A stretch of 16,505 nucleotides of DNA, from UHGV virus genome UHGV-0075529; one strand, written 5' to 3'. The translations under genes and the position numbers were made by a program. The notes beneath the pieces were generated by a model. The model was given only the letters and a program-made list of their open reading frames with translations. It was not told the DNA's origin and ran no database searches. The stretch comes from a virus. Below, piece by piece: positions 4,912 through 10,538 of this stretch (position 1 is the stretch's first letter; each line of letters starts with the position of its first letter).

Positions 4912-5066
4912 GCCGCCTCCCTCTTATTGTTTAGCTCTTCCGCCAAGCGCTGGGCCTTGAGTGGGTTCTGGATGACCATGCCGCCGGGAACCACCCACCC
5001 GCGGCGTAAGTTCGAATAGACGAGCGTCACCGATCCCACGCTGATGTTGTCGTGTGCATTTTTCAT
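4908..5066 (-). CDS. Small hypothetical protein, 52 aa (not in the ORF track)
   Basis: Hand translation of the minus strand gives [52 protein letters not shown]; ATG overlaps the exo stop and its TGA overlaps the dam ATG; SD GGAGAG 8 nt upstream. The listed 84-aa ORF here is in another frame. Confidence 0.45.
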
Positions 5067-5743
5067 CGCCATTGCTCTCCGAAGGTGAAGCCAATCTCTG
5101 CCAGCGCCTCGTCCATCTTTTCGATGAACTCCGGCACCATCTCGTCGAAGTCGGCCATGTATTTTTCATCCCGCTCAACCACGACGTAATGCAGCCCCTC
5201 GCGCTTCATGCGAGGGTCGTAGTTGGCAAAGAACCAGGCTGGATTTTTGTTTACCCACATGCTGTATTGCACCTGGGCCATGTAGTCCGCTTTGATGGCA
5301 TCGAAGCCGCCGAGCCGGAACTTCATGAAGTCTCGGGAGGTGAACGGGCATTTCAGCTCGAGGCCAAATCCGTTACTGCACAGGCCGTCTGGTGAACAGG
5401 CGGTGCGCATGGTTTCATCGCGAAAGAGGATCGGTGATTCGATGACGCTCACTCCGGTCGTGAACTCAAACAGGGTGCGTGCGTCCTCTTCGTACTGCTT
5501 GCCCCAGGCAAGCGCCTTTGCATTCACCTCCGGCGCTACACCGGTGCATACCTCAGCGAGGAGGGTGTGGAAGTAGGACATCTTCATGCAAGTCCATTTG
5601 GTGCCGCTGCGCGGTTTTGAAATGACGTTATGAACCTCAGATGCGGTGATAACACCGAGGCGAAGTCGATGCCACTCCTCATCACCCTGTTCGATTCTGG
5701 TCACATCAATGCCGGTTCGCGCCAGGATGATTTCTGGTGTCAT
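5063..5743 (-). CDS. exo: Lambda-type 5'-3' exonuclease (Red-alpha / YqaJ family)
   Basis: 226 aa, near-collinear with lambda Exo as recalled ([14 protein letters not shown]..., [32 protein letters not shown]-terminal FGEQWR). Confidence 0.9.
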
Positions 5744-6669
5744 GCGGCAGCCCTCTGCTTGAGGAAACCAAGAGCCTTGACGGCCTCTATCTCAGTGAGA
5801 TCGCCAGACTCCAGAATGTCGCGCTTGAAGATACGGCGGCACAGAGGGAGAAGGTCCTCATCCCATGTTTTGTTCATGGCGATCAGGAGGTCGTTTATCT
5901 CTTTCAGCGTGTCGAGGCTGGCCGGGGTAATATCGCGCTCTGGCTGGCGCTCTGCAGCAAAGTTGATACCCTCCTCGCCCTCAGTGTTGACGTGGTCGAT
6001 AGCGGCATCCAGACGTTCGCGTCGCGGCCAGTATTTGGTTGCCTGCTTCACGACTGTCTTGAGGATCATCTGCTCTTCGTCCGTCACCCATGGACACTTC
6101 TTGCTGCTGTCCTGCTTGTACTTCTTCCAGGCTTCCGAACGGTCACGGATCGCGAAGATATCCGCTATGCGCATGGTATGGGTGAGATAGTCGCCGTCGT
6201 CAGTTTTAACCACGACATACGCCCCAACAATCTCACCGCGCTGCTCTGCGGTGTCGAAGTCGTTGTAGATGTGAATGGGTGGCTTATCTAGCCCCTCACG
6301 GCGGAACTGGTCGTTCTTCCGCACGATTGCAGACTGGCACCACTTAATTGCACCAGATTGCTGGGCGATGTGCATCAACCCCATGTAGCTAATATCGAGG
6401 CAGATAGCACCTTTTCGCGGCACAAGATAAGCAAGTTTCTGCGCCGGGTTCAGCGATATCCCGATTCCTGAAATATTCATCAGGGCGCTACGGGTGCTAG
6501 TCGGGTTGGAGAGAGCGATTTTCGCCAGGTAGTCATTGTTGGCGAAGATCTGCATGGCGAACTCAGATTCGCGCTTGAATTGAATGGACGGTTCGGCGCA
6601 AACCTGCTCGAACTCCGCCTTGAGTGGGTTAATCAGGTTGAATACCTGATCTGTAAGCAGGCCAGCCAT
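5740..6669 (-). CDS. recT: RecT-family single-strand annealing protein
   Basis: 309 aa directly upstream of exo with ATGA coupling; sequence pattern consistent with the RecT family; SD AGGAGGA upstream. Confidence 0.75.
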
Positions 6670-6693: not shown

Positions 6694-6978
6694 TTAAAAC
6701 GGGCAGCCGGTGCGGTGTTCCCAGTCGTGCTCTGCCTGGGCGTAGGCCACTGCCGAAACGAAGTCGTTGTATGCCTCGGCAGCTTTATCGCTGCGAAGTC
6801 CTTCGTATGGGCTGGCGTCGATCGGCACGGAGAAGTGGAAGAGACCGGACGGCTCTTTTGGCATCATGTCGATGATTTCCTGCGCCCGGTCGTCGATCCA
6901 CTTCTCTTTCTCGTCGGTGAGCTGCTGCTCAGCCCAGCGTCGATCTTCGATGCGGTCGTAAGTGAGGAATGCGTTCAT
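6694..6978 (-). CDS. gam: Gam-like host-nuclease (RecBCD) inhibitor
   Basis: 94 aa; N-terminus MNAFLTYDRIEDRRWAEQQL resembles lambda GamS [22 protein letters not shown] as recalled; sits just upstream of the annealing protein as in lambda. Confidence 0.55.
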   Translation of the reverse strand: MNAFLTYDRIEDRRWAEQQLTDEKEKWIDDRAQEIIDMMPKEPSGLFHFSVPIDASPYEGLRSDKAAEAYNDFVSAVAYAQAEHDWEHRTGCPF

Positions 6979-6985
6979 GGTTGCC

Positions 6986-7957
6986 TCAGTAATGAATTTT
7001 CGCGCAGGGGATTAGGTCGTCTTTAAGTGCGGTGAGCACTTCGATAGCCTGTTCGCGGGTTAAGCTGGTGTGGCTGGTGAGCGCGTTAACGATGTTGGTG
7101 CCGACCGTCTTGCGGTGCTTCACGTCAGCTTCGCGCTTTGCCTGTTCATCGGCGAGGCGCTTCTCTTCGGCCAGGCGAGCATCTTCGGCCTGTTTTGCCT
7201 TGTGGCGCTCAGCTTCCACTGCCGCAGCTTTTTCTCTTTCCGCCCGGGCTTCTGCTTCCTTCTTCTCGCGTGTCGCACGCTGTTCCGCTTCAATGCGCTG
7301 GCGTTCCGCCAGCTCTGCACGCGCTTTCTCTTCAGCTTCACGGCGCGCTGCGGCTTCAATTTCTGCTTTGTGCTTCGCTTCGGCATCGCGTCGGGCTTGC
7401 TCTGCCGCTTCACTCTTAATGCGCTCTTCATGCTCACGTTGAGCCTGTTCCGCCAGGCGGCGCTGCTCTTCGCGGTCCCGGTCAAAATCCTTATTCATCA
7501 GCAGAGCCATTTCGTGGTCCGCTTCGAACTGAATAGCCCGCTGCAAATCGATGCTCTCGTTCATCACCAGTGCTTCGGCGTGCATCGCGTTCATGGCTTC
7601 TTCAGCCTTAATACGTTCCTGCTCGGCTTCCCATTCGGTAAGTGGGCGCCGTACTTCATCCTTCAGCGCGTCCAGCCTCTCACGCACAATGCGGCGGCTT
7701 TCGTCGATCTGCTTCGGCAGGGCTTTAAGCTCGGCAACCAGATCCTTGCCGGCGTTGTCGATATAGGTTTTGGAGCGGGCAACCTTATGCGCCATGGATG
7801 CGATCGCGTCGCGGCCTTTGCGGGTCGACACATCCGGTACCAGGCTGCGAGCTTCTTTCTCGATCGCCTCAATAATAGGGTCGAGCTGCTCTTTGGTGGT
7901 GAATACCGCCATTGCGTTCTGTTTCTCAATGACGACTAAATCCGTTACTTCGCTCAT
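6986..7957 (-). CDS. Low-complexity coiled-coil protein, 323 aa (Ala/Glu/Arg/Lys-rich centre)
   Basis: Uninterrupted ORF with strong SD (AGGAGA); central ~150 aa is a charged repeat (EAEQRATREKKEAEARAEREKAAAVEAERHKAKQ...) between non-repetitive termini. Confidence 0.7.
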   Translation of the reverse strand: MSEVTDLVVIEKQNAMAVFTTKEQLDPIIEAIEKEARSLVPDVSTRKGRDAIASMAHKVARSKTYIDNAGKDLVAELKALPKQIDESRRIVRERLDALKDEVRRPLTEWEAEQERIKAEEAMNAMHAEALVMNESIDLQRAIQFEADHEMALLMNKDFDRDREEQRRLAEQAQREHEERIKSEAAEQARRDAEAKHKAEIEAAARREAEEKARAELAERQRIEAEQRATREKKEAEARAEREKAAAVEAERHKAKQAEDARLAEEKRLADEQAKREADVKHRKTVGTNIVNALTSHTSLTREQAIEVLTALKDDLIPCAKIHY

Positions 7958-8025
7958 GGTTTCTCCTGAAATTTGGATGTGCAGATGCCGCCCGCATAAG
8001 CCAGGCCGATCGGTTGAATAGGGGG

Positions 8026-8166
8026 TTAGGCTGTTTTTCTATGCCACGGATAACCGATGGCGACCTTCATTTCGTCGTAGGCTGCCATCCACATGGCGCC
8101 ATCACCGATAAACAGGGCAATGGCTGCTTTACTCTGCGCTGCGCGCAGCAGGTGATGATTGATCAT
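8026..8166 (-). CDS. kil: Kil-like small peptide, 46 aa (candidate cell-division inhibitor; not in the ORF track)
   Basis: Hand translation: MINHHLLRAAQSKAAIALFIGDGAMWMAAYDEMKVAIGYPWHRKTA; ATG overlaps the stop of the upstream small ORF; the ALFIGDGAMW segment resembles lambda Kil as I recall it (unverified). Confidence 0.4.
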   Translation of the reverse strand: MINHHLLRAAQSKAAIALFIGDGAMWMAAYDEMKVAIGYPWHRKTA

Positions 8167-8321
8167 GCCTTCACCTCAACCTGTTTCATGAGGCCAGCGA
8201 TATTCATCTGTTGGCGGTTCAGCGTCAGCTTGTCGCGCGGTGCCGATACCGACGTCAACTGCCACTCGTTATCGTTGAGTTTTTTGGCGGTGTACTGCTT
8301 GCCGTTGTGGGTGACTGTCAT
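8163..8321 (-). CDS. Small hypothetical protein, 52 aa (not in the ORF track)
   Basis: Hand translation: MTVTHNGKQYTAKKLNDNEWQLTSVSAPRDKLTLNRQQMNIAGLMKQVEVKA; strong SD GGAGGAATC directly upstream; ATGA overlaps at both ends. Confidence 0.45.
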   Translation of the reverse strand: MTVTHNGKQYTAKKLNDNEWQLTSVSAPRDKLTLNRQQMNIAGLMKQVEVKA

Positions 8322-8557
8322 GATTCCTCCCGAGCGCGGAGCATTGCGTCAGCTATCTGGTACGCTTCGGTTGCCGTGCGGTCATCGCTACACAACCAGT
8401 CAGGATTGGCTAATCGACCCTGCATAGCCTTGGCCGCGAAGTAATCGCGTAGGGTCATGCCGCCAGAGCTGACTTCGAAACCATGTAAGTGACCAACTTC
8501 GTCGCGCTCCACGATAGAATCACACGGGAAAGCGCGCCCTCCAGTTTTGTTGCTCAT
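8318..8557 (-). CDS. Hypothetical phage protein, 79 aa
   Basis: ORF with SD AAGAGGG upstream of ATG 8557; first gene after the leftward terminator. Confidence 0.6.
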   Translation of the reverse strand: MSNKTGGRAFPCDSIVERDEVGHLHGFEVSSGGMTLRDYFAAKAMQGRLANPDWLCSDDRTATEAYQIADAMLRAREES

Positions 8558-8691
8558 AAACCCTCTTGGCCTTATCGCGGCGAACGGAACGGTTAATACA
8601 AGACTTCAACGCATTTATTCAGTGTTTCAATGGGCGGTGGATGGCCGCCGGTTGTCATAACTTGAGCCACTCGTAAATGACCCCAGGTATG

Positions 8692-8714
8692 AAAAAAGCC
8701 GCTGGTTAGGCGGC
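8692..8714 (-). terminator. Intrinsic terminator (minus strand), tL1-like position downstream of the pL-proximal genes
   Basis: Stem GCCGC (8698-8702) / GCGGC (8710-8714), loop TGGTTAG, followed on the minus strand by TTTTTT (plus A-run 8692-8697). Confidence 0.65.
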
Positions 8715-8873
8715 TCTGTTAATCCATTCTCGTGCGTTGCGTCGGCACATCCATGCCAGCTTTACCCAAAGGTCATGAAACCCATCACCACGCACTGATG
8801 CTCGACATTTTTTGCGGTACTGCCTGTAATCTTCACTGCACTCGGCAGCATATTTATCAGTTGTGCTTTGCAT
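8706..8873 (-). CDS. Small hypothetical Cys-containing protein, 55 aa (not in the ORF track)
   Basis: Hand translation: MQSTTDKYAAECSEDYRQYRKKCRASVRGDGFHDLWVKLAWMCRRNAREWINRAA; SD GAGGGT upstream; its stop lies in the loop of the 8692-8714 terminator. Confidence 0.4.
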   Translation of the reverse strand: MQSTTDKYAAECSEDYRQYRKKCRASVRGDGFHDLWVKLAWMCRRNAREWINRAA

Positions 8874-8930
8874 GCTCTTACCCTCTGTCGTTACCCGCTG
8901 ATGCGGGAGAAATTCTTTATCTATCAGCTG

Positions 8931-9143
8931 CTACAACTCATCACGAATCTGTGAGAGTGTGCTGATCGCCTGGTAATGACCGCGACGCTGCTCTTCTGTT
9001 TTGAACGCGCGCATATCGTCTTTTATCGATGCGATTGCCTTATTCAGAACTTCCACTTGCGCTTCTTTAATCGCCTGTTTGCGTGGCTTCTGACGCTTCT
9101 TAGGAAGGTCTCTTAAACACGCCGGAATGTATGTCTGAGTCAT
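8931..9143 (-). CDS. Basic 70-aa protein, first gene downstream of pL (N position; antiterminator identity unproven)
   Basis: ORF with SD AAGAGGA; Lys/Arg-rich stretch LPKKRQKPRKQAIKEAQ near the N-terminus; position matches lambda N. Confidence 0.5.
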   Translation of the reverse strand: MTQTYIPACLRDLPKKRQKPRKQAIKEAQVEVLNKAIASIKDDMRAFKTEEQRRGHYQAISTLSQIRDEL

Positions 9144-9348
9144 AAAAAATCCTCTTGTGATTCAGCACAGCCCACTCAGCTTCGAATGGACTGGAATAAA
9201 TCTTTTTTTCGCTTTGCCATAATTGCCGCTCTCCCTGAGCCCGCCTATGGTCCGACGCATGGTTTACTGTCGCGCCGTTCGACTGACCGAATCTCCACTT
9301 CGCCGCTGGCTAACTTCGCTCAGCTGTCGATGTTTCGTTTCGATGGGG

Positions 9349-9430
9349 TAAATTTAGCGTGATGCTAAATTATGCGCAATAGCAAAATGCTAAATTGTTG
9401 AATGGTTTTATTTAGCGTATTGATTAATAA
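9349..9430 (-). promoter_or_regulatory. OL operator triplet with pL promoter
   Basis: 17-bp sites TTTAGC-N5-GCTAAA at 9353-9369 (perfect), 9378-9394 and 9411-9427 (imperfect); on the minus strand -35 TTGCGC (9379-9374), 17-bp spacer, -10 TAAATT (9356-9351). Confidence 0.6.
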
Positions 9431-9466
9431 GCGATTAAAAATTTACAGCGAAGGAATTCGGGACGT

Positions 9467-9490
9467 AAAAAAGCCCGCGCGATGGCGGGC
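9467..9490 (-). terminator. Intrinsic terminator downstream of cI (minus strand)
   Basis: Stem GCCCGC (9473-9478) / GCGGGC (9485-9490), loop GCGATG, followed on the minus strand by TTTTTT (plus A-run 9467-9472). Confidence 0.6.
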
Positions 9491-9510
9491 TTGAGGGGTT
9501 TTGCGTGAGG

Positions 9511-10188
9511 TTATGGGATGTTTAGTATTTTGGCATCAACCACAACGCCGATGATTTTGCAGTTTCCATTAATTTCTAGCATTGGATATGCGGGGTTAAG
9601 GGGCTTTAGGAAGCGTCTGCCGGCATCGATTACAAGCTTCTTAAAGGTCGCTTCGTTATCGCCTTCTAGCTTCGCGACAACCAGCTTTCCGTTGCGCGGC
9701 TCGACTTCAGGATCAACAAGTATCGCTGCTCCCTCGGGTATGCTCAGTCCAGCCGGGGAGGTCATAGAATCCCCTTTAACGTCCAGCCAGAATGAATCTT
9801 CTGAGCAGTCAACAGTCGTGTCATACCAGCGATCTATCGCTCTTCGGTGATAAGGTTCTACAGCTTCCATCCATTGCCCCGCGCTTACCCAGCTGATTAC
9901 AGGATAACTTCCTTTTGTCTCGTTCAGTCCTCGAAATGCAACGTTCGAAGGTTCTTCACTGGCGTGTAAAACATCCATCCAGCCAAAAGGCAGATCAAGC
10001 GCAGTTTCAATTTTGCGAGCCATCTTATCGCCGATATTGCGATGAGGGTTTGGTCCCAGTAGCTGGCTAAGCGCAGCCGGACTTGTCTCGATGAGCTCGG
10101 CAAACTGCGCTTTGGTCATTCCAGACTCGTGCTGACGCTTCTCGTACAGCGCTTCCAGGTTGGCTTTTCTGATTTCTTTATTTTCCAT
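9511..10188 (-). CDS. cI: cI-type prophage repressor (N-terminal HTH, C-terminal S24 LexA-like autopeptidase)
   Basis: Start taken at ATG 10188 (MENKEIRKANLEA...); C-terminal domain has the catalytic Ser in GDSM, a downstream Lys, and an Ala-Gly candidate cleavage site (SWVSAGQW). The ORF track runs to 10305 across the operators. Confidence 0.88.
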   Translation of the reverse strand: MENKEIRKANLEALYEKRQHESGMTKAQFAELIETSPAALSQLLGPNPHRNIGDKMARKIETALDLPFGWMDVLHASEEPSNVAFRGLNETKGSYPVISWVSAGQWMEAVEPYHRRAIDRWYDTTVDCSEDSFWLDVKGDSMTSPAGLSIPEGAAILVDPEVEPRNGKLVVAKLEGDNEATFKKLVIDAGRRFLKPLNPAYPMLEINGNCKIIGVVVDAKILNIP

Positions 10189-10304
10189 ACCTGCATTGTT
10201 ACTGCTTTTAGCAAAATGATAAATATGCAAATTGCTAAATGATGCTTGCGTAGTATTTAGCATAACGCTAAACTCCAAATCAAACGACTCACCCGGAGAC
10301 ACCA
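10189..10304. promoter_or_regulatory. OR operator triplet with divergent PRM/PR promoters
   Basis: 17-bp sites at 10207-10223 (TTTAGC-AAAAT-GATAAA), 10223-10239 (weak) and 10256-10272 (perfect TTTAGC-ATAAC-GCTAAA); PR candidate -35 TTGCGT (10246-10251), 17-bp spacer, -10 TAAACT (10269-10274). Confidence 0.7.
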
Positions 10305-10538
10305 ATGAGCACTGAACTACACCGCTGGCGCAAGGCCGCCACTACCGACGAATGGGCGCAGCTCGCAAAGTTGGCTAACACGACGCCAGGTTACCTGGAC
10401 CAGATCGCCTACGGAAATCGCCGGGCATCTCCAGAAATGGCATCTGCTATCGAGAAAGGCACGAAGAATTTTCACCGCCAGGCTCCGGTCCTAAAAGAAA
10501 GCCTGGTATTCGCATCGCCGCGTGATACTGCGGCCTAA
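10305..10538 (+). CDS. cro: Cro-like / YdaS-family HTH DNA-binding protein
   Basis: 77-aa ORF divergent from cI across the operator region; SD GGAGA 7 nt upstream; HTH-like segment EWAQLAKLANTTPGYLDQIAYGNR. Confidence 0.65.
   Translation: MSTELHRWRKAATTDEWAQLAKLANTTPGYLDQIAYGNRRASPEMASAIEKGTKNFHRQAPVLKESLVFASPRDTAA

Follow-up and report, generated by a model that had tools for sequence, protein, structure and literature searches.

A lambda-type kil gene and a conserved hypothetical gene chained in the early-left operon of a phi80-like lambdoid prophage

Two very short open reading frames (ORFs), of 52 and 46 codons, lie one behind the other on the minus strand of the virus genome UHGV-0075529, following a 79-codon ORF, and raise the question of whether they are genes and what their products might do. 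We refer to the whole stretch of DNA that was analyzed, 16,505 nucleotides in length, as the window. The initial annotation had picked out both ORFs by hand translation and had pointed to a resemblance of the 46-aa product to lambda Kil. As posed, that finding amounts to correct annotation and no new biology: the two ORFs are a known Kil gene and an already-predicted hypothetical gene. The analysis nevertheless revealed an exchange of unrelated division inhibitors at this position and a tie between the 52-aa protein and these inhibitors, and the following sections deal with the operon, with Kil, and with the 52-aa protein (here orf52) in turn.

The operon and its chained trio of genes

We identify the window as an early-left (pL) operon, that of a lambdoid prophage that resembles phi80 and belongs to the Enterobacter cloacae complex. 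It is 99.95% identical across 14.9 kb to the contig JBMDYV010000002.1 (GCA_048815935.1), and its relatives come overwhelmingly from the E. cloacae complex. On the minus strand, the order is cI, a tL1A-like terminator, orf79, orf52, kil, agt/mog, gamL, recT, and exo (Table 1). The cI-type repressor gene marks the immunity region, and pL reads leftward from there. The tL1A-like hairpin (AGCCGC-CTAACCA-GCGGCT, with a T-run after it) differs hardly at all from the tL1A region annotated in phi80, and the 160 nt that separate it from the orf79 ATG show ~98% identity to the tL1A/tL1B region of phi80, though the flanking genes differ. The hairpin was recognized only via this phi80 alignment and was not reported by a consensus terminator scan. 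A consensus scan of 7800-10500 for promoters gave no sigma-70 site, no homologue of the N antiterminator was recognized in the window, and an Rfam search of the window gave no match. An uncalled arginine-rich ORF of 55 aa (8706-8873) ends exactly at the hairpin.

Table 1. Coordinates of features in the early-left region of the window
Feature	Position	Strand	Family match or basis
cI-type S24 repressor	9511..10305	-	phrog_4, E 1.5e-50; Peptidase_S24 in relatives
70-aa ORF (hypothetical), first gene left of cI	8931-9143	-	phrog_5305
tL1A-like intrinsic terminator hairpin, 5' of orf79-orf52-kil	8692..8715	-	alignment to phi80
orf79, 79 aa, first of the ATGA-chained trio	8318..8557	-	phrog_2201, E 2e-20
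Shine-Dalgarno sequence GGAGGAATC for orf52, within the 3' end of orf79	8322..8330	-	raw sequence
ATGA overlap of orf79 stop and orf52 start	8318..8321	-	raw sequence
orf52, 52-aa conserved hypothetical protein (PHI80_44 family)	8163..8321	-	phrog_6396
Shine-Dalgarno sequence GAGGTG for kil	8172..8177	-	orf52 codons E49-V50
ATGA overlap of orf52 stop (TGA) and kil start (ATG)	8163..8166	-	raw sequence
kil, lambda-family Kil peptide, predicted FtsZ-ring assembly inhibitor, 46 aa, MINHHLLRAAQSKAAIALFIGDGAMWMAAYDEMKVAIGYPWHRKTA	8026..8166	-	
kil-agt intergenic spacer	7958..8025	-	right-hand boundary of the kil cassette
agt/mog-like gene, 323 aa	6986..7957	-	phrog_1376, E 3e-104; same position as phi80 agt
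gamL, host nuclease inhibitor	6694..6978	-	phrog_1050, E 1e-45
recT-type annealing protein	5740..6669	-	Pfam RecT, 99 bits
exo, exonuclease, follows recT	5063-5743	-	phrog_149

Downstream of the trio, the phi80 counterpart of the agt/mog-like gene is annotated as an antitoxin/modifier of GamL, and relatives carry PF28165 (GamL) and the RefSeq name GamL. The 323-aa agt/mog-like protein has a long central segment rich in Glu, Ala, Arg, and Lys, with weak TolA-like and fibrinogen-binding-like matches; its gene is absent or replaced by an HNH gene in some relatives (E. coli HL15, KO-TP1, and CobraSix).

The 52- and 46-aa ORFs, the strong Shine-Dalgarno (SD) sequence ahead of the former, and the chaining of both with the upstream 79-aa gene were found in the raw sequence and in the ORF listing exactly as first described, and all three ORFs are the longest possible in their own frames. 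Since the plus strand reads tcat, or ATGA on the coding strand, at both junctions, each stop codon overlaps the following start codon. The SD sequence of orf52 lies 0 nt from its ATG, with the GGAGG ending 4 nt upstream, and GGAGG-like motifs occur 5' of orf52 in most relatives. The SD sequence of kil lies 5 nt before the kil ATG (7 nt for its GAGG), inside the last codons of orf52; the C-terminal VE(V/G)K of orf52 is conserved and retains this GAGG in relatives. Hairpin pairing of the kil SD at the orf52/kil junction was not significant when compared with shuffled sequences (z -0.6).

Pooled Nei-Gojobori counts on relatives confirmed both micro-ORFs as real genes under purifying selection. 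The pN/pS ratio of orf52 was 0.31 in the claimed frame versus 0.47-2.4 in the other five (19 sequences), and that of kil was 0.16 versus 0.27-2.4; in a larger set, the ratios were 0.25 for orf52 (78 unique sequences) and 0.093 for kil (19 unique sequences). By half, orf52 gave 0.09 for codons 1-26 and 0.375 for codons 27-52. The initial annotation had named a lack of Kil similarity combined with a lack of frame conservation as evidence that would count against it; instead, the Kil similarity was found (see below) and both frames proved to be conserved with a synonymous bias. It is almost certainly wrong that the micro-ORFs are not genes and that the true coding sequence is the 137-aa ORF on the plus strand (8014-8427), which is present across both of them, or that the region is a noncoding leader: the phi80 record does annotate PHI80_43 antisense to PHI80_44, but the pN/pS of the plus-strand frame is 2.26 in the kil segment (sense frame, 0.16) and 0.47 in orf52 (sense frame, 0.31), the plus-strand ORF cannot be conserved wherever KilR replaces Kil, and both sense products match curated families, so that by its substitution pattern the long ORF is a shadow ORF.

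The description of both ORFs as unannotated was true of the ORF track with its 60-aa cutoff but not of public records, which name Kil, nor of RefSeq/PGAP and other gene callers, which predict both genes in relatives. Exact copies of the Kil protein are present on at least 1000 public contigs, and those of the orf52 protein on 35. The unevenly annotated gene in this lineage is orf79, not the two micro-ORFs. Its match to phrog_2201 is restricted to the C-terminal part of that family, and the exact orf79 protein is found on 145 public contigs, where it is labelled 'hypothetical'. On the 99.95%-identical NCBI contig, orf79 is intact and identical (8765-9004 of locus L117), yet it is absent from the gene calls.

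A lambda-type Kil in an exchangeable slot

Judged by its sequence, the 46-aa product is a lambda Kil family member. It scored 42.2 bits (E 5.6e-11) on Pfam PF06301 (Lambda_Kil), well above the gathering score of 27.6 bits, over positions 1-27 of the 31 in the profile, and matched phrog_2055 ('Kil protein for bacterial septation inhibition') with an E value of 7e-22. BLASTP against lambda Kil, for which the reference sequence was taken from NC_001416, gave 14/28 identical residues (50%) across the FIGD turn (LxAxQxKxxIAxFIGDxxM), bearing out the proposed resemblance. A tblastn search on phage genomes matched 70 records, most of which carry a Kil annotation, and the identity was 72% to Kil of phage Dewey and 60% to those of HK97, HK022, Sf6, and H-19B, among others. 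In a multiple alignment, K13, I16, A17, the G-D turn, M25, and A29 were kept, and the peptide aligned gap-free to residues 3-38 of lambda Kil, where its G21-D22 coincided with G19-D20. It thus shares with PF06301 members the small size (~37-50 aa) and, as far as alignment can tell, the helix-turn-helix core with its Gly-Asp turn; its gene likewise occupies the place of kil between N/tL1 and the gam/recombination genes, presumably with an N dependence like that of phi80.

Lambda Kil (47 aa) and the window Kil are similar in size and have a gap-free helix1-GD turn-helix2 core in common, and both genes lie in a pL operon 5' of the gam/recombination genes and overlap their upstream neighbor. Conversely, the 50% identity extends over just the 28 core residues, the C-terminal tail GYPWHRKTA is like that of the HK97 group and unlike that of lambda, and the upstream overlapping gene is orf52 in the window and cIII in lambda. 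In addition, and unlike in lambda, kil is set apart from gamL by the agt/mog gene. The place that had been claimed for kil relative to gam was therefore right in that kil lies upstream of gam, but the 323-aa agt/mog-like gene stands between them, as in phi80.

Lambda Kil is expressed from pL and blocks FtsZ-ring assembly in a ZipA-dependent manner (PMC3961180), and its helix-turn-helix core, with this turn, was found to be essential (Naha et al., PMC11762379). By homology, the window Kil is predicted to form a two-helix hairpin with its turn at G21-D22 and to disrupt FtsZ-ring assembly in a ZipA-dependent manner, and induced cells would be expected to filament; ZipA dependence itself has been demonstrated for lambda and HK629 Kil only. 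The kil gene is not new, as it is already named in public annotation. E. coli HL15 encodes an identical Kil protein, with five synonymous differences in the gene (WP_023327239.1), whose annotation reads 'kil: host cell division inhibitory peptide Kil', and the same name is used across Enterobacteriaceae. Since the identical protein is named Kil on so many contigs, this Kil was already known.

In phi80 and most relatives, the kil slot contains a 66-70-aa KilR-type gene. The phi80 'kil' product (69 aa) scored 117 bits on NCBIfam NF008465 (cut-off 92) and belongs to phrog_294, that is, to the KilR/Rac type. In contrast, the 46-aa protein of the window matched no NCBIfam model, including NF008465, at E<=0.1. 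Alignment to lambda Kil and to Rac KilR had both been proposed as checks; the former succeeded, whereas the similarity to KilR ended after MINH. The KilR/phi80 Kil proteins (NF008465, PF27398, phrog_294; FtsZ inhibitors of 66-73 aa) occupy the same slot, ATGA-coupled to orf52, in phi80 and most relatives, and they have their first residues, MINH(H/Y), in common with the window Kil. No homology extends beyond the first ~5 residues, however, and both length and predicted composition differ.

The DNA of the window was aligned with the corresponding stretches of phi80 and of a prophage of E. coli. Identity was high through orf52, broke ~15 nt past the kil ATG, and resumed immediately after the stop codon; similarity to the KilR-carrying relatives likewise picked up again just past the kil stop. 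This break after the ATG and resumption after the stop indicate that the slot holds interchangeable, nonhomologous division inhibitors: phi80 has an unrelated KilR-type inhibitor there, and in the window it is swapped for a lambda-type kil. The phi80-like kil slot thus presents a functional-analogue replacement at exact gene boundaries, involving two unrelated FtsZ inhibitors. The loci compared were 8026-8166 of the window, 2802-3011 of L001 (phi80), and 2592-2801 of L002. In the kil-agt spacer, RNA structure was no better than in shuffled sequences (z +1.6).

RefSeq calls a KilR-type FtsZ inhibitor 'cell division protein FtsZ' (WP_000607101.1, 69 aa; many E. coli genomes). This name on KilR-type proteins is a propagated misannotation in which the inhibitor bears the name of its target, and the RefSeq mislabelling of many KilR-type proteins should be corrected.

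The orf52 family and its linkage to division inhibitors

The 52-aa protein is a member of an already-catalogued hypothetical family. It matched phrog_6396 (hypothetical) over its full length with an E value of 1.2e-33, and its gene has the position typical of the PHROG 6396/PHI80_44 family, 5' of a division-inhibitor gene. Its identity to PHI80_44 of phi80, which holds the same position 5' of kil, is 83%; PHI80_44 is annotated as 66 aa with an upstream start, whereas the conserved form is 52 aa long. Clustering at 90% identity divides the family into 261 clusters, which are all named 'hypothetical' and have no Pfam domain, and its members are found on 490 IMG/VR contigs. In the literature, we found no experiment on the 46-aa protein or on any orf52 homologue.

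We modelled orf52 using AlphaFold2. The single-sequence model was poor (pLDDT 63.7), and a model based on a 99-sequence alignment, with a pLDDT of 92.1, was used instead. It has four strands (residues 2-5, 8-14, 19-24, and 31-35) and two short C-terminal helices, and orf52 is thus confidently predicted to be an SH3/Tudor-like beta-barrel with a C-terminal helix.

The genomic surroundings of orf52 were compared at 104 loci, drawn from genomes as well as from viral contigs. An ATGA junction (-4) between the orf52 stop and the next start was present at 100 of the 104. The gene after orf52 was of the KilR type at ~69 loci (two subtypes, both phrog_294) and of the lambda-Kil type at 28; three loci had an HNH endonuclease gene there, all three being insertions in the 5' end of kilR, and the remaining loci were truncated. 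The gene 5' of orf52, on the other hand, varied among relatives. At the three HNH loci (L018, L045, and L068), the insertion lies at the orf52 ATGA junction and leaves a kilR remnant that is ~18 codons short at its N-terminal end; the HNH gene of L045 itself has an internal deletion.

A profile search of 1.8 billion representatives detected natural single-chain fusions of the orf52 and Kil domains in three divergent clusters (P0160, P0164, and P0166; for example, at 322-630 of L030 and 4001-4282 of L114). WP_318380028.1 is likewise a natural fusion. On Pfam Lambda_Kil, P0164 (40.9 bits) and P0166 (32.1 bits) scored above the cut-off, and P0160 scored 22.1 bits. Since the P0160 cluster has 27 members from four sources (NCBI, JGI, ENA, and Logan), it is not a sequencing slip, and the P0164 fusion lies in a normal pL context. 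A fusion of an orf79-like domain with orf52 (P0154; L119 1807-2196) has 11 members in Cronobacter/Franconibacter and is followed by kilR. In P0156 (L121 2501-2770) and P0158 (L120 843-1088), the orf52 domain carries other, unrelated C-terminal tails of 30-40 aa. Both proteins are encoded in the kilR slot of Rac-like prophages, just ahead of ydaE/recE, and their tails may represent a further type of inhibitor moiety. As evidence, the fusions weigh less than usual because ATGA-overlapped genes fuse by a one-base slip.

Possible roles of orf52

The near-obligate coupling of orf52 to an inhibitor gene, together with its occasional fusion to the inhibitor, makes it most likely that orf52 is an accessory of the division-inhibition module, although orf52 may just as well only be inherited along with it. 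Taken jointly, we consider it very probable that the locus is best explained as a phi80-like pL operon with a chained gene trio, in which a lambda-type Kil cassette has been swapped in and orf52 is a likely accessory. After loss of the repressor, leftward transcription would have to read through the tL1 terminators, as the phi80 annotation suggests, and antitermination from pL, presumably dependent on N, would allow orf79, orf52, kil, agt/mog, gamL, recT, and exo to be transcribed. The first three of these genes would be translated as a chain via the ATGA stop/start overlaps. With the kil SD sequence lying within orf52, ribosomes ending orf52 could restart on kil by termination-reinitiation, and the Kil so made would act on the FtsZ ring.

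An account of orf52 to which we give nearly even chances is that it works independently of Kil, as an early-operon accessory (host-takeover) gene of a phi80-type module that is inherited as a block. Recombination would then exchange the kil cassette between two conserved flanks, one formed by orf52 and the other by the spacer plus agt, and the breakpoints do lie exactly at the ORF edges, as modular exchange predicts. In five cases, one and the same orf52 protein sequence is found ahead of KilR-type genes and ahead of lambda-type genes, which speaks against a specific physical partner. The inhibitors do not need orf52, since lambda, HK97, Dewey, and Rac have Kil or KilR but no orf52. The predicted SH3/Tudor-like fold of orf52 is that of a generic interaction module, has no functional match, and also fits a role apart from Kil. 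Conversely, the linkage of orf52 to an inhibitor is essentially complete over ~100 loci in several genera while the upstream neighbor is variable, the Kil-domain fusions are kept in at least three divergent clusters, and orf52-domain proteins with other tails sit in the kilR slot of Rac-like prophages.

A further reading, which we regard as possible but rather doubtful, is that the orf52 domain (MTVTHNGKxY...W.L) is an unrecognized companion module of prophage division inhibitors. If so, orf52 would tune, target, or stabilize the inhibitor or act on the same divisome target, and phage division inhibition would be a two-part system in the phi80-like lineage. As a 52-aa hypothetical protein tied to the kil slot at all loci compared and sometimes fused to Kil, orf52 offers a concrete and inexpensive starting point for experiments on how a toxic division inhibitor is kept under control by phages.

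It is improbable that orf52 is a functional analogue of lambda CIII, the FtsH protease inhibitor. The argument for this is positional: cIII holds the slot directly 5' of, and overlapping, kil in lambda, HK97, and Dewey, CIII is of similar size (45-54 aa), and no cIII is annotated or detectable in phi80 or the window. The activity of CIII resides in an amphipathic helix, whereas the predicted fold of orf52 is mostly beta. Homology to CIII was rejected, as an hhalign comparison with orf52 gave a probability of 0.5% and orf52 had no match to Pfam Lambda_CIII at E<=1.

We also considered a homology of orf52 to the N-terminal half of KilR and rejected it: the similarity covered 15 columns with a probability of 20% (HNGKQYTA vs HEGRTYRVSA), and we treat this likeness as a common beta-hairpin motif, not as homology. 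The profile search of the 1.8 billion representatives returned 47 matches to orf52, several of which are giant repeat proteins with similarity to positions 2-27 only. The N-terminal hairpin of orf52 (residues 2-27, TVTHNGKQYTAKKLNDNEW) matched tandem repeat units of these proteins, including 15 stretches in P0141 (6001 aa) and 12 in P0150 (6306 aa), and had a weak match to NCBIfam 'Ca_tandemer'; this hairpin probably resembles an adhesin-repeat motif.
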